A DNA stretch of 64,000 bases, from positions 33,913-97,912 of IMG/VR virus record IMGVR_UViG_3300032030_000040; one strand, given 5' to 3'. The notes beneath the pieces are model-generated. The model saw only the letters and a program-made list of their open reading frames with translations, did no database searches and was not told the origin of the DNA. Origin of the DNA: a virus (Duplodnaviria > Caudoviricetes). Made by a program: the position numbers and the translations under genes. Positions 2,082-62,643 of this stretch are shown here, piece after piece (position 1 is the stretch's first letter; each line of letters opens with the position of its first letter).

Positions 2082-2198
2082 AAAACTTGTAATTTTCCCG
2101 AAAAAACTTGCCTAAAAATTTGCATATTTGATAAATTCTTTGTACCTTTGAAGTAGCAAATAAGATAAGTTATTCACATTCAAAACTTCAAGATTATG
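2082..2198 (+). promoter_or_regulatory. Repeated promoter/leader cassette copy 1
   Basis: TTTG 2119-2122, 20-nt spacer, TACCTTTG 2143-2150, then GTAGCAAATAAGATAAGT...CATTCAAAACTT...ATTATG. Confidence 0.85.
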
Positions 2199-2534
2199 GC
2201 AAGTACAGTTAAAAACATCGAGAGTGCAAACAAGAGTTTGGTAATGAAGGCAGCTTGGGCTATCCTCAAGAAAGCCGAGGTAAGAACGTTGAGCGAGGCC
2301 ATGAAGCAGGCTTGGAAGGCCGTCAAGTTGAAGGTTGCTATGGCCAAGGGCGTAGTGAAGTTCCAGTACCGCAAGGCCAGTGGCGAGATTCGTACAGCTA
2401 TCGGTACCCTGAAATCAGGTGTGGTCAACTATGAGCCGAAGGGTACAACCCGTAAGCCGTGCTACTCTACCGTCGCCTATTGGGACATCGAGAAGAAGGG
2501 CTTCCGTTCGTTCTGCATCAGCCACTTAATCTAA
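2196..2534 (+). CDS. SH3 beta-barrel (WYL_2/DUF2693-like) protein
   Basis: VKFQYRKASGEIRTAIGTL...YWDIEKKGFRSF motif. Confidence 0.7.
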   Translation: MASTVKNIESANKSLVMKAAWAILKKAEVRTLSEAMKQAWKAVKLKVAMAKGVVKFQYRKASGEIRTAIGTLKSGVVNYEPKGTTRKPCYSTVAYWDIEKKGFRSFCISHLI

Positions 2535-4938: not shown

Positions 4939-5287
4939 GTTCCTCATCATCGAGGGCAAGTGTAGCGAGTTCCTGGAAATCGACTTTGGAGCTGGCGGAG
5001 AGACGACGCAGGGCGTTGTAACAGAAGGCCCGTTCAAGGGCTGTGGCTTTATCTCAGTCGGAGGTGGTGGTTTCATGTGCTGTGATGACTGCAACAGAGG
5101 AATCCTACCGTCAGAGACCTGCTATTATGTGGCCGTGCTCAACCGTATATTCTGCAAGGAGTGTTTTGAGGACTGGCACCAGAGGGCGACCTACTATCAG
5201 GAGGATGCGCCAAGCGAGAGAAGGAACTATGCAGTGACGGCTTCCAAGTTGGCCAGTATCGGAATCGAGATAGAAGAAGAGTCATGA
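4916..5287 (+). CDS. Zinc-finger protein
   Basis: CCDDC...CKEC; in-frame ATG at 4916 preferred. Confidence 0.55.
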   Translation: MAKKVKSKFLIIEGKCSEFLEIDFGAGGETTQGVVTEGPFKGCGFISVGGGGFMCCDDCNRGILPSETCYYVAVLNRIFCKECFEDWHQRATYYQEDAPSERRNYAVTASKLASIGIEIEEES

Positions 5288-6600
5288 ACAAGCCTACAGA
5301 CGATCAGGTACGCTGGATGGTTCGCCACCCTATTACGACTATTCTATCCTTCGTGTTTGAACTGCCGTTCTATATACTGGAGCTGATGGAATGGCTCTTG
5401 TTAAAAGCGGAAACCAAGGAACAACGTATAATAAGAATCAAGGTGCAAAGAGCAATAGCATATTACATAATAAGGTTTTTCAGATATTTAGAGTCATGAA
5501 TACAAGTATAGCAAACAAGGCCATGCTCCGCTTTGCCAAGGAGTATGCACAGAAGAACTGGCTACTCGAAGGATGGGTAAGACCAGATGATTTCTGGGCA
5601 AACAAGGTTGAAAAGTTCCTGCATCCAGAGAAGCCGCAGGTGATTGAGGTGAGCTTCGTTGCTCCAGTCTTTGATGAAGACAGGGAGAAGGGGGACTACT
5701 GGAAGATTCCGAGAGTGAGGATTGACAGCTATTGGGGACACCCACGGCTCAATGTGGTTGACAAGGAACATAACTTCTGCTGTATCTCCTATGACCGAGA
5801 GACCAACAAATTCAAGGAAGGTCAGTTCTGGGGAGAGCACGGACTGGAGCTTGCTCAGCGAGTCAAGGCAAAAATAGAGTTGTATATCCAGATGATGAAG
5901 GACGGTTACGATATGCAGATAGAACAACAAAAGCAATAGAATATGAAGAACTTACCAGAAAGCATCTTCCTCAACTTAGGAGAACTGTCTGAGGAAGATT
6001 TCAGAGAGACCGATTTTGCGGAGGCCCGCAAGGAGTGGGAAATAACGTGGTGTGAAGACAAGGTGCATGAACACGACATCGAGTATGTCCGCAAGGACCT
6101 GGCAGAAGGTTCCAAGTGGCACAGGTACGATGAAGAGAAGCCCACGAAGGAGCTGAGTGCCTTAGTGGTTCATTCAGATACGAGTTTCGCCATCCGCTAT
6201 ACCATCAAGGACAGAAAGGGGAACTATGCCCTGCCAAAGAGCGAGAGAGGCTATGCGCCCTTGTTCTGGATGGAGGTGCCACAGATACCAGAGGAACTAA
6301 ATAGAAGGAGAAAGTAATATGGGACATGACCAGCCACAGATGCGGTTTTTTGCCGCAGAGCTTCGCAGGGAGCTCGAGAGGACAGCAGTGGAAGGCTGCT
6401 ATTGTGAAGTCGAGGACTACAATGACGGCACGGACGTACCGAAAATCAAGGTGAAGTCGAGTGCGCTCAATCCTGACCAGGCTTCTTTGTTCTGTCTTGA
6501 TGAAGTGGTAGAGTACTGCACCGCAAACGAGTTGCATCACTATGTGACAGTAGAACAGCAGCTGAGCGGGACAGTCATACCAATCATCGTAATCTTCTGA
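5284..6600 (+). CDS. Run of hypothetical genes (5284-5499, 5496-5939, 5943-6317 DUF551-like, 6319-6600)
   Basis: Tightly packed co-oriented ORFs; W..Y.EEKP...FWMEVP in 5943-6317. Confidence 0.55.
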
Positions 6601-6700
6601 CGGCAGTTGCGCTTCCTCAGTACTTACCTTATTTGCTACATGGGAAGTTTTGAATGAGGGGAAGCAGCCGTCTGGGGCATCCGCTTTGGGTGCCCCTTTT
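6599..6700 (+). ncRNA. Candidate 3'-UTR-derived antisense sRNA (stem-loop displaying complements of the cassette leader boxes) plus terminator
   Basis: Stem GACGGC..GCTTCCTCA / TGAGGGGAAGC..GCCGTC encloses TACTTACCTTATTTGCTAC and GAAGTTTTGAATG, followed by GGGGCATCC-GCTTT-GGGTGCCCC-TTTT. Confidence 0.55.
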
Positions 6701-6738
6701 CTAAAAAAGTTGTCGAACAAAATGAAGGAGAAATAGAA

Positions 6739-7278
6739 ATGGCAAGCAAACAGGAATCTCTTCAGGAATACTTTCTTATGGCAAAGGAGATCGCCAGACA
6801 GGAAAAGAGTCTCGGCATTGAGCATTGGGACTTCATTTCCATCGAGAGGGACGGTGACAAGGCAGGCGAGTATGTCAGGCTCTATCACTACGACCTTCCG
6901 AGGCAGATTGCGGAGAAGTACGACTGGGTTGTACGGTGGCGTGCTGCAAAGCTCCAGTGCCAATACCCTCGCTATGGTGTGCGCATCTACCATTCCCCAT
7001 ACAAGAAGGTGATGGGCGTGAACATCGGTATGCAAAAGGATATCGACACCTTTGTAGCTGCCAAGGCACAGTACACCAAGCAGAAGCGTATTCTTGACAC
7101 CTACATATCTGAGCAGAAGGTAATGAACATTTTCTTCAGCGAAGACACGGACCAGGAGGTAATCAGGATAAAGGCCAAGCTCGAAGTTAAGAGAGAAAAC
7201 ATCGAACAGGCAGAGGCAAGGCTTATCGAGAAGGTTAAACAATTCAAATCACAGCAACATGGGAAGACCTCAGTCTAA
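6739..7278 (+). CDS. Hypothetical phage protein
   Basis: 179-aa ORF. Confidence 0.65.
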   Translation: MASKQESLQEYFLMAKEIARQEKSLGIEHWDFISIERDGDKAGEYVRLYHYDLPRQIAEKYDWVVRWRAAKLQCQYPRYGVRIYHSPYKKVMGVNIGMQKDIDTFVAAKAQYTKQKRILDTYISEQKVMNIFFSEDTDQEVIRIKAKLEVKRENIEQAEARLIEKVKQFKSQQHGKTSV

Positions 7279-7516
7279 CGGACTTATAGAACTCGTTGAT
7301 TCCAAGAGCGAGAATAGCGGATTTTTCTGCATACAGCTGGTGAGCTATCTCAACGAGGAAAGAAAGATGGGTACGCCAGAGTATGCCGACTTGTGGGAAA
7401 TAAGGTTCTCGCAGGCCAAGAACCATAATTGCGCATACAAGGACAAATGCCCCATCTTTGCAAAGACCAAGGCAAAGAAGTCACACGTACCGATCCAACT
7501 GCAGCTTGATTTCTAA
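7259..7516 (+). CDS. Hypothetical phage protein
   Basis: 85-aa ORF overlapping upstream stop. Confidence 0.55.
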   Translation: MGRPQSNGLIELVDSKSENSGFFCIQLVSYLNEERKMGTPEYADLWEIRFSQAKNHNCAYKDKCPIFAKTKAKKSHVPIQLQLDF

Positions 7517-7544
7517 AACACTATCGGGAGTCGATGCCTGAAAA

Positions 7545-7659
7545 TTTCTTGTAATTTCCCCGAAAAAATATGCCTAAAAACTTGCATATTTGATAAACTT
7601 TTTGTACCTTTGTAATAGCAAATAAGATAAATACAAACTTTCAAAACTTAGGAATCATG
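7545..7659 (+). promoter_or_regulatory. Repeated promoter/leader cassette copy 2
   Basis: CTTGCATATTTGATAAACTTTTTGTACCTTTG-TAATAGCAAATAAGATAA...TTCAAAACTTAG...ATG. Confidence 0.85.
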
Positions 7660-7986
7660 CAGAAAATTAGTTTGAAGAAAGAGACAATCAAGGCCATCGC
7701 AGACCGAATCAACGGTACTGAAGCCTCTGGCCAGTTGACAACTGTCACTGATGCGGAGTTCGAGCAGGACGGTTTCCTTATCATGGTAGATTACGAGGTC
7801 TATGGTGAGTGGCGTGACCAACAGATGAGACACAGCGAGGTTCCCTATAACAACATCGAGGACCTGTCAGGCTGGGAGCGTGACGGTGCAGCCATCAGCT
7901 TCATCAATGCCTATGGGGATGACGGTGAAGACGTGGAGATTGCCCAGAGCGACCTTGATGCCCTGATGGAAGAGATAGCAGCTTAA
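7657..7986 (+). CDS. Acidic hypothetical protein
   Basis: 109 aa, very D/E-rich, first gene after cassette 2. Confidence 0.65.
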   Translation: MQKISLKKETIKAIADRINGTEASGQLTTVTDAEFEQDGFLIMVDYEVYGEWRDQQMRHSEVPYNNIEDLSGWERDGAAISFINAYGDDGEDVEIAQSDLDALMEEIAA

Positions 7987-8037
7987 CTGAGGACAGGGGG
8001 CTTGCTCCCTTTCTCTTCACCATAAAATCAGAGAAGA

Positions 8038-8373
8038 ATGAAACTATACATTGCAACACCAATCAACTCCAGAACGGAGAAGACGTTAGAAGAGAAGAAA
8101 CGTGCGGCCAAGCACCGAATAAATCTCCTGAAGGAAATCATCAGCAGCGATATGCGCTTCAGAAAGTATGACAAGCTGGTGAGCACCTTTGACATCAAGC
8201 AGATTATCAGCACGACTACTGAGGAAGTGGCATTAGGCCACTGTGTGACGGCAGTCCTTCAGAGCGATGCCATCTATCTCGATCACGGCTGGAACGCCAG
8301 TAACGGGTGTAACCTCGAATACCGAGCAGCTAAGATTTACGGGAAGGCTATTTACGAACACGATAAAATGTAA
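8038..8373 (+). CDS. DUF4406-like (nucleoside deoxyribosyltransferase-like fold) protein
   Basis: KLYIATPI...DAIYLDHGWNASNGCNLEYRAAKIYGK. Confidence 0.7.
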   Translation: MKLYIATPINSRTEKTLEEKKRAAKHRINLLKEIISSDMRFRKYDKLVSTFDIKQIISTTTEEVALGHCVTAVLQSDAIYLDHGWNASNGCNLEYRAAKIYGKAIYEHDKM

Positions 8374-8378
8374 GCATT

Positions 8379-8864
8379 ATGAACAAAGAGACTATTCAGG
8401 GATTCACCGTAGAGTGTTACGACAGCTGGAAGTTCTGTCAGGATGAAGAGCAGAACAAGGTGGTGGCACAGCTTCCTCATCTGGCATACGATGAGCTGCT
8501 GCATCACCGGAGCATGGAGCGTGGTAAGGTGTATCGGGCACAGCTGACGCTCGACGTGTCTAATCAGGATATGGAGGTGCCGATGAAGCCCGCATACCTT
8601 GGGGAAATGTTCAAGCACAACTTCGTCGAGACCACCGACAAGAAGAATGTCTTTGTCGGCTGGATAGTAAGGACTCGGACGAACTACAGCGATAAGGACA
8701 GCCTGACGTTCTATCTTGAGCACCCAGGCCCAGGAATACAGAGGTGGTGCGGAATCTGTTTCGGTTACGGAATGTTCTGGCATCCCATGCCATCGACTAT
8801 GCTCATGGATAGCACCCCACTTAACACCCCATTGAAATGCTTATTGACCATCGAGTTAATATAG
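8379..8864 (+). CDS. Hypothetical phage protein
   Basis: 161-aa ORF. Confidence 0.6.
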   Translation: MNKETIQGFTVECYDSWKFCQDEEQNKVVAQLPHLAYDELLHHRSMERGKVYRAQLTLDVSNQDMEVPMKPAYLGEMFKHNFVETTDKKNVFVGWIVRTRTNYSDKDSLTFYLEHPGPGIQRWCGICFGYGMFWHPMPSTMLMDSTPLNTPLKCLLTIELI

Positions 8865-8905
8865 AGACACAGCGCCATGCGCTGGAATTTGCTAAGTTTT
8901 GAAGT

Positions 8906-8945
8906 TGTAGCTGCTCGTCAGGGATGATAGGCAGCTACATTTTTT
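8906..8945 (+). terminator. Rho-independent terminator preceded by anti-leader sequence
   Basis: TGTAGCTGC...GCAGCTACA followed by a T-run. Confidence 0.75.
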
Positions 8946-8984
8946 AACGTGGATTTGCTTACATATTTTAACGTTATTCTTCAA

Positions 8985-9081
8985 AACTTTCTGGCCGAAA
9001 ACTTGCATATTTGATAAACTTTTTGTACCTTTGAAGTAGCAAATAAGATAAGTAACAACAATTCAAAACTTCAAAATTATG
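8985..9081 (+). promoter_or_regulatory. Repeated promoter/leader cassette copy 3
   Basis: Same -33/-7 and leader boxes ahead of ATG 9079. Confidence 0.85.
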
Positions 9082-22936: not shown

Positions 22937-24304
22937 ATGGCAGAAGTCGAACTGGCATACAAGCGCAAGGCTCGCCTGAGAGGTAAGAACCGCAAGGTGA
23001 GAATCGAGCAGGTTTACGACATGCAGAACCTCATAGCTGCTGACCATGAAGCCCGCAAGGGGAAGCGTGGCCATAAGGGTGTGCGTGAGTTCGACAAAGA
23101 CAAGGATGGTAACTTCCTGCTTCTTCAGCAGATGATTAAGGAAGGAACCTACCACACGTCGCCAGGCCATGAGTGCGTCCGCCACTGTCCCTGTGGAAAG
23201 GACAGGCTGCTGCATAAGCTGCCGTACTTCCCAGACCACATAGACCATCATGCGCTCATGCAGGTTATCATGCCAGTGCTGCTGAAGTATTACTACTATG
23301 ACTCTGCAGCCAGTATCAAGGGGAAGGGTATGCACTTTGCAGCCCGTAGGACGGAACGATGGATAGACGAGAACAAGGACGCCGGAAGGCTGTACTATGC
23401 CAAGCTGGACTTCGTGAAGTTCTACCACCTCATTAACCAGCTGCTTATCTACGAGTTCCTTTGCAGTATCTTCGGCAACAAGGGAATCCGTTACCTTCTC
23501 TGGGAGGTGGTGACGGCCTGTGAGCAAGGGCTGGGAATCGGGCTCTATCCCATCCAGCCTATCGCCAATGCCTATACTTGTCCGCTTTGCCGCCTGCTGA
23601 TGCGGAAGTTCCGTGTCAGGATAGAGATATACTGTGACGATATCCTTATCATGTCACGCTGGAAGAAAGAGGTCTGGAGAGCCGTGAATTTCGTTCAGTG
23701 GTATGCGAGGGAGGTCATGCGCCAACCTCTTCATGACAATATCGGAGTCCAGATTATCGACACCACTCGCAGGGTGGACTTCGTGGGCTATCAGTATTTC
23801 TTCTGCCACACTCTTCTTCGCAAGAAGATGAAGTGCAAGTTCAAGCAGCGCATGAGCCAGCTGAAGGACGAAATGCTCCGCTATCAGGTGGCCACATCTT
23901 ACAAGGGGTGGATGATGCACTGTGACGGCTACAACCTCTGGTGTGCAGTGATGAAGATGAAGTCATTCAAAGAACTGGGAGTTCCCACCTTTGAGAAGAA
24001 GGATGCCGACGGCAAGCGGATGCTTGAAGGTACCCGTGTGTCGATGGAGTCTCTTGAAGGCCATGAGATAGCTTTCCTTGATGTCGAGTTTGATGTAAGG
24101 TCTAAGTATGACGGCAAGAAGAACGAACCGAAATTCTCCGCTGTCGTGCAGGTTGAGGAATACGGAAAGAAGAAAAAGTTCTTCACCAACAATCCCAAGC
24201 TGCAGGACACGCTTAGATACGTGAAAGATAACGGAATGTTCCCCTTCAAGGGTACGCTGGTGCCCATCAACAAGACGGGACTGCCCGACTACGAGATTCA
24301 GTAA
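22937..24304 (+). CDS. DGR reverse transcriptase with fused C-terminal domain
   Basis: KLDFVKFY, GLGIGLYPIQ, YCDD (23630-23641) and VDFVGY motifs; adjacent TR/VR. Confidence 0.93.
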   Translation: MAEVELAYKRKARLRGKNRKVRIEQVYDMQNLIAADHEARKGKRGHKGVREFDKDKDGNFLLLQQMIKEGTYHTSPGHECVRHCPCGKDRLLHKLPYFPDHIDHHALMQVIMPVLLKYYYYDSAASIKGKGMHFAARRTERWIDENKDAGRLYYAKLDFVKFYHLINQLLIYEFLCSIFGNKGIRYLLWEVVTACEQGLGIGLYPIQPIANAYTCPLCRLLMRKFRVRIEIYCDDILIMSRWKKEVWRAVNFVQWYAREVMRQPLHDNIGVQIIDTTRRVDFVGYQYFFCHTLLRKKMKCKFKQRMSQLKDEMLRYQVATSYKGWMMHCDGYNLWCAVMKMKSFKELGVPTFEKKDADGKRMLEGTRVSMESLEGHEIAFLDVEFDVRSKYDGKKNEPKFSAVVQVEEYGKKKKFFTNNPKLQDTLRYVKDNGMFPFKGTLVPINKTGLPDYEIQ

Positions 24305-30710: not shown

Positions 30711-30750
30711 AGTCGTACCACCCGTGATGGGTCGTGCGACTTATTTTTGT
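30711..30750 (+). terminator. Terminator of structural operon
   Basis: AGTCGTAC..CCCGTGATGGG..GTGCGACT followed by TATTTTTG. Confidence 0.65.
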
Positions 30751-39774: not shown

Positions 39775-40347
39775 GTGAACTGGATTTTGAATATAATTAA
39801 CTGGTGCCAGACTTGGAAAGTCGTATGGGCTGTACTCGGAGGAATCTTCGGGTGGTTCATCGGGGAGTTCCAGCCGACATTCCCCCTCATGGGAGCTGTG
39901 ATAGTTTTGATTGTCAGTGATGCTTGGACGGCATACCAACTTGACAAGAGAGTGCATAGGAAATATCCGAGTAAGGTAAAGAGGGATGAAGCCAAGTTCA
40001 CAAGTTTTGCTTTCGGAAAGGTTGTCAGGCAGACCATTCCGAAACGTCTCTGGCTCATCATTCTTGCCTTCATCGTCGAACACTGGATATTCATTCATGT
40101 GGAGATTCCTTTGAGCTATATTGTGGCCGGAGTGATTGCTTTTGAGCAGATATTAAGTATTCTGGAAAACGAGGCTTCATGTCGGGAAGATGACAGTGAC
40201 GGGCGTTTCTGGAAGATGCTCAAGAAACTCCTTATTGACAAGACCGAAAGGCATTTTGACGTAGAGCTTGGGGAATTGCGTGACCCAGACCAGAAGCGCA
40301 AGCGTCCAAGGCACAAGCCAAGCTACAGGGAAAACGAAGAATTATAA
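39775..40347 (+). CDS. Holin (Phage_holin_4_1-like)
   Basis: Three TM segments, SILENEAS motif, basic C-terminus. Confidence 0.75.
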
Positions 40348-40357
40348 AACCCAAAAT

Positions 40358-41644
40358 ATGTTTTCAAAGCACAGTTTATTTACATCTGAGGCAGTATCAG
40401 AAGGCCACCCCGACAAGGTGGCCGACCAGATTTCTGACGCTATCCTCGATGCGCACATTGCGAAAGACCCGTCATCGAAGGTGGCGTGTGAGACGATGGT
40501 CACCACTGGCCAGGTCATCGTAGCTGGAGAAATCAAGTCTGCAGCAAAAGTTGATGTTCAGGAGGTAGTGAGGAACACCATCAAGCGTATTGGCTATGAC
40601 AGGCCAGAGTTGAAATTTGACGGCGAGAGCTGTGGAGTCATTAACCTCATGCACGAACAGAGTGCCGACATTCGTAGGGGTGTCGAGCGCCATGAACCCA
40701 TGAATCAGGGCGCAGGCGATCAGGGCATGATGTTCGGATATGCGACAGACGAGACAGAGGCTTTCATGCCTTTGCCTATTTACTTGGCCAACCTCATCGT
40801 GAAAGAGCTGGCTGCTATCCGCAGGGAGCACGTCTGCATGATGTACCTACGTCCAGACGCAAAGAGTCAAGTAACGGTTGAATATGACGAGAACGGAAAA
40901 GCCGTTCATATCGACACGATTGTAGTTTCCACCCAGCATGACGAGTTTATTACGCCAGACAACTGCAATCTGCCAGACGAAGCAGATGCGGAAATGCGAG
41001 ACCTTATCACCTACGATATCGAGAACTATGTACTGCCAAGGGTGAAGGAGCGTATCAGCTCTGATGAAATCCTGGCACTCTTCGACAAGAACACGAAGCT
41101 GCTGGTGAATCCGACTGGAAAGTTTGTCATCGGTGGCCCTCATGGTGACACAGGTCTGACAGGCCGTAAGATTATCGTAGATACATACGGAGGCAAGGGC
41201 GCACATGGCGGTGGCGCTTTCTCAGGGAAAGACCCCAGCAAGGTTGACCGCTCTGCTGCTTACATGGCACGTTACATTGCGAAGAACATGGTAGCTGCTG
41301 GAGTTGCCAAGGAAATGCTGGTACAGCTGAGCTACGCCATTGGCATAGCGGAGCCAGTAAGCGTGAACGTCCAGACCTTCGGCACCTGTAAGGTCAACAA
41401 GACCGATGCGGAGATAGCCGGAATCATCAGGGAGATTTTCGACCTGAGACCAAAGGCCATCGAGTGCCAACTGTCACTGAGACAGCCTATCTATGAAGAG
41501 ACAGCTGCCTACGGTCATGTAGGTCGAGAACAGACGTGCGTGACCAAGACCATCGAAGGAGTGTCCTACAACGTAGCTCTGTTTACGTGGGAAGCCCTTG
41601 ATTCCGTGGAGAAGATTCTTGAATACTTGAAGACAAACTCATAA
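40358..41644 (+). CDS. metK: S-adenosylmethionine synthetase
   Basis: [42 protein letters not shown] signatures. Confidence 0.97.
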
Positions 41645-44120: not shown

Positions 44121-44235
44121 CTTTCTCCCGAAATATTTGCATATTTGATAAAATTTACCTACCTTTGTAATAGCAAATAAGATAAATACAAGGTAACGGC
44201 CATCTAACCAGTGGCCACAATTCAAAACTATTATG
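44121..44235 (+). promoter_or_regulatory. Repeated promoter/leader cassette copy 5 (leader with GGCCA..TGGCC hairpin)
   Basis: TTTGCATATTTGATAAA...TACCTTTG-TAATAGCAAATAAGATAA...ACAATTCAAAAC. Confidence 0.85.
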
Positions 44236-46668: not shown

Positions 46669-48342
46669 ATGCAAGTAAGAAACATTCCATTGACAGACAT
46701 CTGTCCGAGTTCACTTAACCCTCGTAAGACCTTCGACCAGGAGGCATTGAACGAACTGGCCGAGAACATTAAGGAGAACGGTCTGATCCAACCTATCACA
46801 GTGCGCAAGCTCCCAAAGGGCAGTGACCACAAGTTTGAAATCGTATGCGGTGAGCGTCGCTTCCGTGCAACGGCCATTGCAGGACTGGAGGAAATCCAGT
46901 GTGTGGTGAGAGAGCTGGATGACAAACACGCTTTCGCTGCCATGATTATCGAGAACCTTCAGCGCAAGGACGTTGACCCGATGGAAGAGGCAGCAGCCTT
47001 CCATAAGCTCTACACCGAGGGCACCATGAAGATTGCCGAGATTGCTAAGATGCTGGGCAAGTCATCGAGCTTCGTGACCAGCCGTATTCAGTTGAACAGC
47101 ATCATCCCAGAGTTCGAGAACCTGATGCGCAACGGCACCCTGTACCTCGTACACCTTCTGGAAATCTGCAAGCTGACTCAGGAACAGCAGCAGGTACTCT
47201 TCCGTGACTGCTTCAACGAGGCCAGCATTGCCCGTTGGCCACAGAAGATTCTGAAGCTCGAAATCCTCCACGACATGATTGATGAGCACGTCATGAACTT
47301 CCTTGACACGGCTCCATTCTCACAGACAGACGGAACGTTCAGCTGCAACAAGGACTGTGAGGGCTGTCCGTTCAACACCAAGAACAAGCCAGAGAGCTAC
47401 AAGGACAGTGCCCGTCCCCGTTGTATGGATGCTACTTGCTTCAGGAAAAAGACACGGGAGTACATCTTCCGCACGGCCAAGTCCCTTGATATGCCTATCG
47501 TCTATCAGGGCAGCATTGACGATGATATCGTGAAGGCAGCGAAGGAGTACGGACTGGAGCTGGTGGATATGACCAACCGCAGTTACGTGCAGCTCCCCAA
47601 GGAGCCAGAGAAGGCCAACTTCACCGATGAAGAGTTCTATGAGAAGCGTATGCAGGCCTACCGCCACGTCAAGGCCATCTTCGACAGCAACATCGAGGAC
47701 GGAAACGTTCAGAAGGTGTATGAGATTTGCTTCCATGGGAACCTCAGTGGTCAGTTCAAGTACGCATACTCTATCCCGAAGGAGGCTGAGGACAGCACGG
47801 CCATTGCCGACAGTGACCGTCAGAAGGAACAGGTGACCAAGCTCAAGGACGCATTGCTCAAGACCGAAGAGAAGGAACAGGAAGAGCTTGTAGAGAAGAA
47901 GCGTGAGGCTCTGGAGAGCTCCGACTATTCCAAGCAGAACACGGCCCTCTCTGGAGAGGAACAGCGTATCTTCCACGCTCTGCTTGTGAAGCGTCTGTCC
48001 TATGAGTTCAAGAAGTCTATCGGTCTGGAATGGAGCAACACCCCTGACTGCTTCGAGAAGTGTGCCAAGGTCATTGAGGAAAACCGCAATGCCATCAAGC
48101 GAGAGTTCATCAAGCAGGCGCTCAGCGAGAAGAGCGTATGCTACTCCCATGACCTTGCAGGTCTGCTGGTGGCACTGTTGGCCGAGAGTGACCAGACGGC
48201 ATCCAAGGAGATTGAGGATGAGGTGGCCAAGAAGTACGAGGCCCAGCGTGTCAAGTTGCAGACCGATATCGACAAACTGAACGGCAAGCTGGAGCCTGGC
48301 GTAGTCAATGAGCCTGCCGATGGTACCAACGTCGCAGAGTGA
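46669..48342 (+). CDS. ParB/Spo0J-family protein (plasmid/PRTRC type)
   Basis: NPRKTFD..L.ELAENIKENGLIQPITVR...VCGERRFRA...ENLQRKD. Confidence 0.9.
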   Translation: MQVRNIPLTDICPSSLNPRKTFDQEALNELAENIKENGLIQPITVRKLPKGSDHKFEIVCGERRFRATAIAGLEEIQCVVRELDDKHAFAAMIIENLQRKDVDPMEEAAAFHKLYTEGTMKIAEIAKMLGKSSSFVTSRIQLNSIIPEFENLMRNGTLYLVHLLEICKLTQEQQQVLFRDCFNEASIARWPQKILKLEILHDMIDEHVMNFLDTAPFSQTDGTFSCNKDCEGCPFNTKNKPESYKDSARPRCMDATCFRKKTREYIFRTAKSLDMPIVYQGSIDDDIVKAAKEYGLELVDMTNRSYVQLPKEPEKANFTDEEFYEKRMQAYRHVKAIFDSNIEDGNVQKVYEICFHGNLSGQFKYAYSIPKEAEDSTAIADSDRQKEQVTKLKDALLKTEEKEQEELVEKKREALESSDYSKQNTALSGEEQRIFHALLVKRLSYEFKKSIGLEWSNTPDCFEKCAKVIEENRNAIKREFIKQALSEKSVCYSHDLAGLLVALLAESDQTASKEIEDEVAKKYEAQRVKLQTDIDKLNGKLEPGVVNEPADGTNVAE

Positions 48343-52196: not shown

Positions 52197-53426
52197 TCAA
52201 AATCCCATTTCATCAATCAGTTCGTCCATTGTCTTGTCAGAAGCAACGGCGTCGAACACCTTACGGATGGCTGCATCAGCCATCCTTTTACTTACGTGTA
52301 TATAGTTGCCGATGGTCTTACTCCCTGTCGATGTGGAGTCACCGATACAAAACTCAATGACACTTTCCTTAATCATCAGCTCATTGGCAAGCTGGGCGAA
52401 GGTCTTTCTTGCTGAGTAGTAGATTAGCCGACTGTCAATATCGCAGGCTTTGGCCACGTCCTTCAAGTGACGGTTCAGGGTTCTGGTCAAGGAGCAATAT
52501 GTCCTACCCTTATGCTTGTACTGAATCTGTCCTCTGACGATCAGACGGTCTATAAGCTCCCGTGCTTCTGGCTGTATGGTGAACTCGGTGGATTGCTCTT
52601 CAGGTCTGTAGTTCATGGTCTTTTGTCTCAGGAAGCGGATGGACGGCTTTGAGAAATCAAGGCGCATGATATCTACGAGATTCATGCCGCACAGGTAGAA
52701 GGACAGCATGAAGAGGTCACGGGAAAATGTCATCTGCTCCTTGTAGCGTCCCTCAAACTCCTTGTCTCTTATAGTGCGTAGCTGCTCTATGGTCAGGCCA
52801 ACGTTACGAATCTTGTTCTTCGGCATATCGAAGTCTCGGAATGGCATGACATCATACTGAACCTTCTTGTATCTGACAGCGAAGGCGACGGCACCACGGA
52901 GATAGCCAAGGTACATGAGCTGGGTCGTGGAGTTCAGTCCTTTCTTTGTCAGGTAGTCTCTCAGCTCAAATAGCTTCATGGCATCCAGACGCTTCAAGGC
53001 ATAGTCCTCCGGAAAGAACGGTTCAATAGCAGCAATGGCCGTATTGAGGATGCGGATGGTGGAGTCAGAGGTGGAACGGAGTTTGTTCTGTCTGTAAAGC
53101 TGGAAGGCTTCATGCAAGGTAATAGGCCTTTCACCCTTAATCCTTTCCTCTATCATGTCAAGCAACTGTGAACAGGTAAGGTAGTCTGTGTCCTCTATCT
53201 GGTCGAAGGCTTTATATATATCAGACATCTGTTTGAGTAGCTGCTGGTTTATGTATGAGGCATTGGGGATTCCAGAGACGCTACCACCGACCAAACAGCC
53301 TGGCGTGTTCACCTTAAAGCGTGTCATGAAGTAGCGAGTGGTTCCTCGATGAGACATGGCAATCCTGATTCGGTGTGTCCCATCGGAGAGCACCTTGGCT
53401 GGAAGTATTGTCGGTTTGAGCTTCAT
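52197..53426 (-). CDS. int: Tyrosine recombinase/integrase (Bacteroidales type)
   Basis: Arm-binding N-terminus; RDLFMLSFYLCGMNLVDI, YSARKTFA and NYIH motifs. Confidence 0.88.
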   Translation of the reverse strand: MKLKPTILPAKVLSDGTHRIRIAMSHRGTTRYFMTRFKVNTPGCLVGGSVSGIPNASYINQQLLKQMSDIYKAFDQIEDTDYLTCSQLLDMIEERIKGERPITLHEAFQLYRQNKLRSTSDSTIRILNTAIAAIEPFFPEDYALKRLDAMKLFELRDYLTKKGLNSTTQLMYLGYLRGAVAFAVRYKKVQYDVMPFRDFDMPKNKIRNVGLTIEQLRTIRDKEFEGRYKEQMTFSRDLFMLSFYLCGMNLVDIMRLDFSKPSIRFLRQKTMNYRPEEQSTEFTIQPEARELIDRLIVRGQIQYKHKGRTYCSLTRTLNRHLKDVAKACDIDSRLIYYSARKTFAQLANELMIKESVIEFCIGDSTSTGSKTIGNYIHVSKRMADAAIRKVFDAVASDKTMDELIDEMGF

Positions 53427-54481: not shown

Positions 54482-54578
54482 ACCTATATATATAATAATG
54501 TGAATAACCCTTTTTGGCAGTCCGTCACGGAGTGCTCAGATATTTTTTTAGTATTTCCCGTAAAAAAGATAAGAAAAG

Positions 54579-54667
54579 TTTGCGTATTTGATAAACTTTT
54601 TGTATCTTTGCAACAGAAAATAACGATAACAACGGCAAAGATAAGCATTTTTCCGTTCCTATGCAAA
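54579..54667. promoter_or_regulatory. Face-to-face lytic/lysogenic promoters
   Basis: + strand TTTG..TATCTTTG (54603-54610); - strand TATCTTTG (54636-54643) with TTTG (54664-54667); both have 20-nt spacers. Confidence 0.7.
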
Positions 54668-54764
54668 TTTGATATATACCTAAAAATAACAAAATGACAA
54701 TGAAGGTTATCATTTCTGTTAGGAAGTAGAAACCTCCCCCTCACGGGGGAACAAAATTAAAAAG

Positions 54765-62208: not shown

Positions 62209-62314
62209 TTTTTCCGAAAAAACTTGCTGAAATATTTGCATATTTGATAAAAACTTTGTATCTTTGTAATAGCAAATAAGATAAATAACAAACATTCAAA
62301 ACTTCAAAATTATG
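62196..62314 (+). promoter_or_regulatory. Repeated promoter/leader cassette copy 9
   Basis: Same boxes ahead of ATG 62312. Confidence 0.85.
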
Positions 62315-62578: not shown

Positions 62579-62643
62579 TTCAATGCAAATAAGATAAAAC
62601 AAAGGTAACGGCCAGCCAACCACTGGCCACAATTCAAAACATT

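Follow-up and report, generated by a model that had tools for sequence, protein, structure and literature searches.

A conserved hairpin at the 3' end of a phage operon mRNA mirrors the leader common to the phage's operons and is a candidate anti-leader regulatory RNA

Phages of the Bacteroidales are, to our knowledge, among the most abundant viruses of the gut and rumen, though the control of their genes is almost unknown, and we know of no Hfq, no ProQ and no Shine-Dalgarno-based translation initiation in their hosts. The stretch of DNA considered here (the window, 64,000 nucleotides (nt)), from a Bacteroidales phage of the rumen, comprises bases 33913-97912 of the IMG/VR virus record IMGVR_UViG_3300032030_000040, which is 97,912 bp long and has direct terminal repeats. 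Directly after the last gene of an operon headed by a WYL_2 gene, window positions 6599-6702 hold a stem-loop whose loop is complementary to two boxes, A and B, of a 5' leader that recurs before many genes of the phage. An initial annotation, made from the sequence alone, proposed that this element is a candidate antisense RNA that could silence a set of repeated accessory cassettes as a delayed negative-feedback timer. Is the element a conserved RNA structure, on which leaders would it act, and with what effect? Here, we describe a comparative and computational analysis that points to a conserved, strand-specific RNA structure and, with moderate confidence, to a regulatory RNA that is directed against the leader and lies where the mRNA of the WYL_2 operon ends. 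That part of the initial interpretation which saw an RNA with a leader-complementary loop is retained; the class of targets that it named is not.

The leader belongs to a module consisting of a promoter (TTTG, 20 nt, TAccTTTG) and a conserved 5' leader of ~45 nt that ends at the ATG. The module is present in 10 copies in the window and about 14 genome-wide, and its promoters match the Bacteroides sigma-A consensus TTTG / TAnnTTTG (PMC7366714). Box A begins 2-3 nt downstream of the -7 box and is therefore the predicted 5' end of the mRNA; with the start placed by promoter consensus only, it would form the first ~19 nt of the transcript. Box B ends ~7 nt upstream of the ATG, within the A-rich region that in Bacteroidetes replaces the Shine-Dalgarno sequence (PMC7366714). 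In the copy that heads the operon bearing the element (cassette 1), the promoter occupies 2119-2150 on the plus strand, with the -33 TTTG at 2119-2122, a 20-nt spacer and the -7 box TACCTTTG at 2143-2150. Box A follows at 2153-2171 (plus strand), the predicted first ~19 nt of the mRNA, and box B at 2177-2189 (plus strand), 7 to 19 nt upstream of the ATG at 2196, as the initial annotation had it. This ATG opens the first gene of the operon, the WYL_2 gene (2196-2534, plus strand; Pfam WYL_2 PF10902, E = 6e-21).

Further predicted targets, all on the plus strand, are the leader of the head maturation protease operon, with boxes A and B within 9036-9072, and the remaining leaders, whose box A lies at 7615, 30813, 44170, 45655, 48815, 49604 and 62269. 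Among the units headed by a module are the head protease operon, a DUF932 gene and the operon that comes before the ParB-like gene. Because structural and replication operons are included, the leader is phage-wide, and the module is a general promoter and leader rather than the mark of accessory cassettes. A search for box A with up to 3 mismatches gave 10 matches, against 0.01 expected in shuffled sequence. Nine of these lie on the plus strand after promoters; the sole minus-strand match is the element at 6599-6702.

The operon is ordered as promoter and leader, WYL_2 gene, variable genes, a gene for a 93-amino-acid (93-aa) protein, element and terminator, so that the element stands in the 3' untranslated region (UTR) of the 93-aa gene (6319-6600, plus strand; stop codon TGA at 6598-6600). 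All parts of the element lie on the plus strand. The 5' arm of its closing helix (6599-6619) contains the outer segment GACGGC (6599-6604) and the inner segment GCTTCCTCA (6611-6619); the 3' arm (6655-6672) contains TGAGGGGAAGC (6655-6665), with a GG bulge in the inner stem, and GCCGTC (6667-6672). These arms enclose a loop of ~35 nt that carries anti-A (6621-6639), complementary to box A at 18 of 19 positions and with a core, UUAUUUGCUAC, that is predicted to be unpaired, and then anti-B (6644-6656), complementary at 13 of 13 positions to the cassette-1 box B at 2177-2189, which is part of the translation initiation region. Anti-B also matches 62293-62305. As the blocks come in the order anti-A then anti-B, the element is not a plain inverted copy of the leader. 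An intrinsic terminator follows at 6674-6702, in which a GC-rich stem-loop (6674-6696; 10 pairs, 7 of them GC) runs directly into TTTTCT, a U tract on the transcribed strand. The stems, the loop, both complementarities, their order and the terminator are therefore as the initial annotation had described them.

Folding of the 110-nt RNA gives -45.7 kcal/mol (z = -3.97), a stability reached by none of 200 shuffles, and the fold that the initial annotation had put forward for checking is thereby upheld. The central 12 nt of anti-A, UUAUUUGCUACA, have a probability of being unpaired of about 0.9 in this genome. Predicted duplex energies are -13 to -19 kcal/mol for A and -10 to -17 kcal/mol for B, the duplex of anti-A with the box A of its own operon being predicted at about -19 to -21 kcal/mol. 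To make both blocks of the loop accessible would cost 9.3 kcal/mol, and in most leaders no more than 3.5 kcal/mol would be needed to free either box; on these modelled values, pairing appears energetically plausible. As a general impression, CCUCC-like sequence is frequent in the 5' arm of the helix and GGAGG-like sequence in the 3' arm. A minus-strand open reading frame that crosses the element (6205-7242) was rejected as spurious, there being stops in all three minus frames in 9 of the 13 variants checked.

Conservation of the element was assessed by drawing homologues of the 93-aa protein, with their DNA contexts, from IMG/VR, ENA, Logan and JGI. Fourteen homologues at 68-94% identity were found, and the variants collected include L122, L123 and L124 at 71, 58 and 54% protein identity. 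Altogether, rumen and gut phage contigs yielded 16 distinct variants of the element, which lies 3' of the 93-aa gene in every readable context; 13 of them were aligned and scored, the three most divergent having been found later. All 16 have the same plan of stop codon, helix, loop with anti-A then anti-B, and intrinsic terminator. The helix measures 12-17 bp, except in L124, where it is 8 bp long and the outer stem is absent. Its sequence varies in nearly every variant with pairing retained: pairing is kept in 98.5% of the cells of the 5-bp outer stem across the 13 variants, one pair being GC in 7 variants and AU in 6 and another changing from CG to UA, and G-U accounts for 4 cells as against 1 for C-A. 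An alignment-free test in which helix arms were exchanged between variants gave a mean of -20.2 kcal/mol for own arms and -14.1 kcal/mol for permuted arms, and none of the 20,000 permutations reached the value for own arms, although this and similar permutation tests are somewhat inflated by the relatedness of the variants. Every variant has the terminator, in which compensatory changes are seen, and its T tract occurs on the plus strand only; the G-U pairs and the T tract point to the plus strand as the functional one.

The loop is conserved where it mirrors the leader. The anti-A core TTTGC is invariant in all 13 aligned variants and the anti-B core GTTTTGAAT in 11, one of the two exceptions retaining the pair as G-U; the invariant alignment columns are these anti-box cores, TTTGC and AGTTTTGA(A)T. 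Each of the 13 scored loops pairs with both boxes better than shuffled loops do (z = -4.8 to -8.6), and complementarity to the shared leader is kept in all 16 variants, which is the conservation that the initial annotation had anticipated. A wider pattern scan of viral contigs gave no match in its exact form and 55 matches in a looser form, of which just 2 were true homologues; scans of metagenomes and genomes returned near-identical copies, two contigs of rumen Bacteroidales metagenome-assembled genomes (MAGs) and few new variants. Taken together, the comparative sequence evidence indicates a genuine RNA structure that is conserved and specific to one strand.

When the leader changes, does the loop change with it? 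In L123 all three leaders read AAAACUCC where the usual sequence is AAAACUUC, and anti-B reads GGAGUUUU where the usual sequence is GAAGUUUU. In L073 the own-operon leader and anti-A are each one base shorter. In 8 of 9 loci no leader is predicted to pair better with the loop than that of its own operon, ties included; in this genome the leader at 2153-2189 ranks first at -38.5 kcal/mol, with others at -37.5 and -36.7 kcal/mol. When loops and own-operon leaders were exchanged among 11 genomes, own combinations averaged -30.15 kcal/mol and exchanged ones -27.88 kcal/mol, and 33 of 20,000 permutations were as low. A proposed covariation between the last base of anti-B (G/A) and the first base of box B (C/U) proved inconsistent across loci and was discarded. 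Of the compensatory changes between loop and leader that the initial annotation had called for, then, a small and directional set is found, whereas that single-position covariation does not hold up; the sequences suggest a modest but directional co-evolution. A relative (G001) encodes the neighbouring 179-aa protein at 88% identity and has other leaders; it carries neither the shared leader nor the element, and a search of it for an anti-leader matching its own, different leader found none.

We propose the following sequence of events. The 12-17-bp helix would hold open the ~35-nt loop and so present both blocks: anti-A would face the first ~19 nt of the leader common to nearly all mRNAs of this phage, and anti-B would face the A-rich stretch that lies 7-19 nt upstream of the start codon, the putative ribosome-loading site where no Shine-Dalgarno sequence is used. 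In vivo, we infer, its partner would be leader RNA; the element could act while still attached as the tail of the complete mRNA, or in the form of a stable 3' fragment guarded by its two hairpins. The first base pairs would form between the seed UUAUUUGC, which is always unpaired, and GCAAAUAA, which faces it close to the 5' end of the mRNA; pairing would then extend over box B, where it would block initiation and perhaps alter decay. The swapped order of the blocks would allow the closed loop to clamp a linear leader as two side-by-side antiparallel helices without melting of the stem, anti-A running up one helix and anti-B down the second, with the 5-9-nt spacer of the leader crossing at the stem end. 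The own-operon leader, as the strongest predicted target, would be subject to negative feedback, and the other leaders of the GTAGC...AAGTA class are the next-strongest predicted targets. Judged from these complementarities, the element probably represses translation, most strongly that of its own operon. Because its own operon is the strongest predicted target, self-feedback or pairing between the 5' and 3' ends of one mRNA is at least as likely as a purely trans-acting, regulon-wide silencer. Precedent for Hfq-free control exists in Bacteroides, where the small RNAs (sRNAs) FopS and GibS repress translation by pairing at mRNA 5' regions (PMC11697453, PMC7366714).

Several observations weigh against an anti-leader function. 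Anti-B is partly sequestered, with a mean probability of being unpaired of 0.34. Perfect anti-A is found in no variant, there being a mismatch or one-base bulge of variable position in the middle of box A; this fits a designed imperfect duplex and slow decay equally. Since the leader is nearly invariant among relatives, the covariation rests on few changes and on permutation tests that ignore relatedness. In a genome-wide scan of duplex energies, with a mean of -15 kcal/mol, the leaders are among the high scorers at -26 to -30 kcal/mol, but GC-rich coding stretches score as high, and energy alone therefore cannot identify targets. The genes at 6739-7278 (179 aa) and 7259-7516 follow the terminator without a promoter cassette of their own, so that the terminator must leak or serve another role. 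Finally, metatranscriptome coverage, in the form of contigs assembled from four sheep or bovine gut runs, spans 6328-6713 and carries no information on ends, strand or level, and carry-over of DNA is possible. One such contig, in which position 6700 joins 2080, was considered as a circular RNA and is instead a genomic variant with a promoter cassette after the terminator (as in L086, L088, L089 and L117).

A second anti-leader RNA is encoded outside the window. Its gene (sRNA2) lies on the minus strand at genome position G000:C1:8795-8960 (= L076:1795-1960:-) and has a canonical promoter, a long hairpin and a terminator hairpin. The product is a non-coding RNA of ~165 nt (fold -66.7 kcal/mol, z = -8.1) that carries anti-B and anti-A contiguously, in the ordinary order and in linear form, partly masked by a leader-like 5' arm. 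It is conserved in three other viral contigs (L113, L114, L115), with compensatory changes in the terminator hairpin, and the segment UAUUUGC, single-stranded in the three closest versions of sRNA2, is the seed also exposed by the 3' UTR element. The gene stands back to back with that of a double Cro/C1-type helix-turn-helix (HTH) protein (L076:2084-2488), a layout that resembles an immunity region. An independent sRNA2 makes leader-directed RNA control in this phage family much more credible. The idea that the element and sRNA2 divide the leaders into two classes was unsupported, sRNA2 pairing about equally with all leaders that share the boxes. Against Rfam, an E-value scan with sRNA2 gave chance-level matches only (GibS at 26.4 bits, where the threshold is 115).

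The modules themselves show some variation. Most cassettes have in common a motif, TTTTTTGTAnTTTTCCCGAAAAAAC, upstream of the core promoter (2083-2118 and equivalents); the cassette at 30743 has a second copy of TTTGTATATTTGATAAA in its place. An UP-like element, a site for a regulator and a tandem promoter are possible explanations. At 54543-54700 a copy of the promoter is followed by a different leader (CAACAGAAAATAACGATAAC...) with neither box A nor box B, and a second promoter copy whose leader lacks both boxes lies at genome position 12326; judged by sequence, leaders of this kind would be out of reach of both anti-leader RNAs. In cassette 44100 the leader (44170-44232) contains a GC-rich hairpin insert of ~25 nt, GGCCATCTAACCAGTGGCC, between boxes A and B, and a second copy carrying this insert occurs at 62585-62640. 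Two genes inside operons have a Shine-Dalgarno-like GAAGGAGAAA 7-10 nt before the ATG (in the window at 6300-6318 and 6722-6738), and first genes of operons have the A-rich leader rather than this motif.

What else could account for a conserved loop that mirrors the leader? It might pair only in cis, with the 5' end of its own mRNA, and have a positive or protective effect, with no diffusible repressor: the closed mRNA would shield its 5' end from 5'-dependent RNases or couple stability to translation. The operon frame is what such an arrangement would call for, with the leader and WYL_2 gene conserved at the front, the 93-aa gene and element conserved at the end and variable genes between; box A is predicted to form the extreme 5' end of the mRNA, no leader outdoes that of the own operon as predicted partner in those 8 of 9 loci, and pairing between 5' and 3' UTRs has bacterial precedents in icaR (PMC3868564) and hbs (PMC5737220). 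However, the energies for own and other leaders are so close (-38.5 vs -37.5 and -36.7 kcal/mol) that cross-reaction seems unavoidable, anti-B covers the ribosome-loading region, which favours repression, and the free-standing anti-leader RNA gene of this phage family must work in trans. We therefore regard an exclusively cis-acting, protective role as unlikely.

Alternatively, the element could be a structural 3' end and nothing else, its hairpin and terminator guarding against 3' exonucleases or binding a phage protein, and the likeness of loop to leader being a relic of an old, rearranged leader copy with no role in pairing. It is common for mRNAs to be stabilised by tandem hairpins at their 3' ends, and anti-A is imperfect in every variant. 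A neutral relic, on the other hand, would not keep just the cores of the anti-boxes while stems, linkers and flanks turn over among 16 variants down to 54% identity; nor would it be expected that the loop follows the leader changes in L123 and L073 and that an unrelated second RNA exposes the identical seed. We consider this explanation quite improbable. Weakest is a role at the level of DNA, with boxes A and B as operators and 6621-6656 as an extra or decoy site, or with the hairpin at work in single-stranded DNA: the boxes do occupy +1 to +40 of every promoter, where operators are typically found, Cro/C1-type HTH and ParB-like proteins are among the products of the phage, and double-stranded sites function in either orientation, but inversion of each box singly with the order kept destroys the geometry of a two-box protein site, the helix covaries with G-U on the plus strand only (4 G-U vs 1 C-A cells), the positions of stop codon, element and T-tract terminator are fixed in all variants, and an operator has no need of a closing helix, so that such a role is very unlikely.

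The anti-leader RNA proposed here can be set beside several known systems. The c4 RNA has two blocks, a' and b', that act against a2 and b2. PMC8198154, citing Citron and Schuster (1990), describes c4 as required for full block of ant expression. The element is like c4 of P1/P7 (immI) and CI of P4 in being a phage RNA with short complementary blocks in a fold, one of them over a translation start: anti-B matches box B at 13 of 13 positions and anti-A the mRNA 5' end at 18 of 19, a likeness of mechanism only. Unlike c4, which lies upstream of a single target in the same operon, the element stands in a 3' UTR and faces a leader common to about a dozen operons, in a host without Hfq and without Shine-Dalgarno-based initiation. 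The Rfam C4 family gave no match at gathering score in the window and is absent among the matches with E <=10 for 6550-6750.

With icaR of S. aureus (PMC3868564) and hbs of B. subtilis (PMC5737220) the element shares a 3' UTR with complementarity to the site of ribosome loading in the 5' UTR of its own mRNA, the own leader at 2153-2189 being its top predicted partner; those systems use one short motif in a monocistronic mRNA, whereas the element has two loop blocks, a polycistronic mRNA of 2-5 kb and a target repeated across the genome. Its position between stop codon (6598-6600) and terminator (6674-6702), the same in all 16 variants, its exposed conserved seed and its stable fold recall sRNAs derived from 3' UTRs (PMC7821165; Bacteroides candidates in PMC7366714). 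Such sRNAs are discrete small transcripts, formed by processing or from an internal start, that have their terminator in common with the parent mRNA; the predicted targets of the element are phage leaders, not host mRNAs. FopS and GibS of Bacteroides thetaiotaomicron (PMC11697453, PMC7366714) belong to the same host phylum and use extended, AU-rich, Hfq-free pairing at the 5' or initiation region, as is proposed for the element; unlike it, they are chromosomal intergenic sRNAs directed against susC-type mRNAs. The element matched neither the GibS nor the FopS covariance model of Rfam, and against Rfam as a whole it gave no match at gathering score (whole window) and chance-level matches only in an E-value scan. 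The element belongs to no Rfam family and resembles c4/CI, 3' UTR-derived sRNAs, icaR/hbs and FopS/GibS in logic. No account of an element like this one in Bacteroidales phages came to light in a limited literature search, in agreement with the initial annotation.

The immediate surroundings of the element are of some interest. In most relatives a promoter and leader follow directly after the terminator (L013, L071, L086, L117), and by this comparison the genes at 6739-7516 look like an inserted block expressed only through terminator read-through. The 179-aa gene is also present in G001, an otherwise unrelated phage, in a different setting. The 93-aa protein has no Pfam or PHROG family; its AlphaFold model (predicted local distance difference test score, pLDDT, 74.7) has no PDB match better than E = 0.035, and the fold is uninformative. 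Within its gene (6319-6600), reading for a TAnnTTTG motif that could mark an internal start revealed none.

Related copies of the phage come from sheep and bovine gut and rumen samples and also occur on contigs of rumen Bacteroidales/Bacteroidaceae MAGs; blastn of window positions 5000-9000 against GenBank phages gave no match. The phage encodes a head maturation protease, ParB-like proteins, a helicase, an S-adenosylmethionine (SAM) synthetase and an integrase-like protein, as well as Cro/C1-type HTH proteins. In the window these include a full SAM synthetase (40268-41644), a ParB-like protein (46669-48342) and the integrase-like protein (52197-53426, minus strand), and there is a weak reverse-transcriptase-like match at 22937-24304. 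Relatives have been called 'provirus', and copies lie in MAG contigs of 134-163 kb. The gene content, these calls and the MAG-contig copies suggest a temperate or plasmid-like lifestyle.

A broader arrangement can be advanced tentatively, as a possibility that we hold to be less probable than its opposite, in which nearly all operons share one promoter and leader that is read by two anti-leader RNAs, sRNA2 and the 3' UTR element. Within this scheme sRNA2, beside its Cro/C1-type repressor gene, looks like an immunity-type silencer, the 3' UTR element would report that its own operon has been fully transcribed, and the swapped order of its boxes would be an adaptation for clamping the leader. 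With nearly all operons under near-identical promoters and one leader, timing and dosage must come from elsewhere, and a conserved RNA that mirrors the leader is a concrete, testable candidate for their control. If confirmed, it would offer a natural case of a hairpin loop that binds two separated target sites in swapped order, and the compact pair of RNA and leader would be usable as a translational switch in the engineering of Bacteroides or Prevotella. If this arrangement is real, a shared leader read by RNAs may prove to be a general, previously undescribed form of genome-wide control in phages whose hosts have neither Hfq nor Shine-Dalgarno-based initiation.

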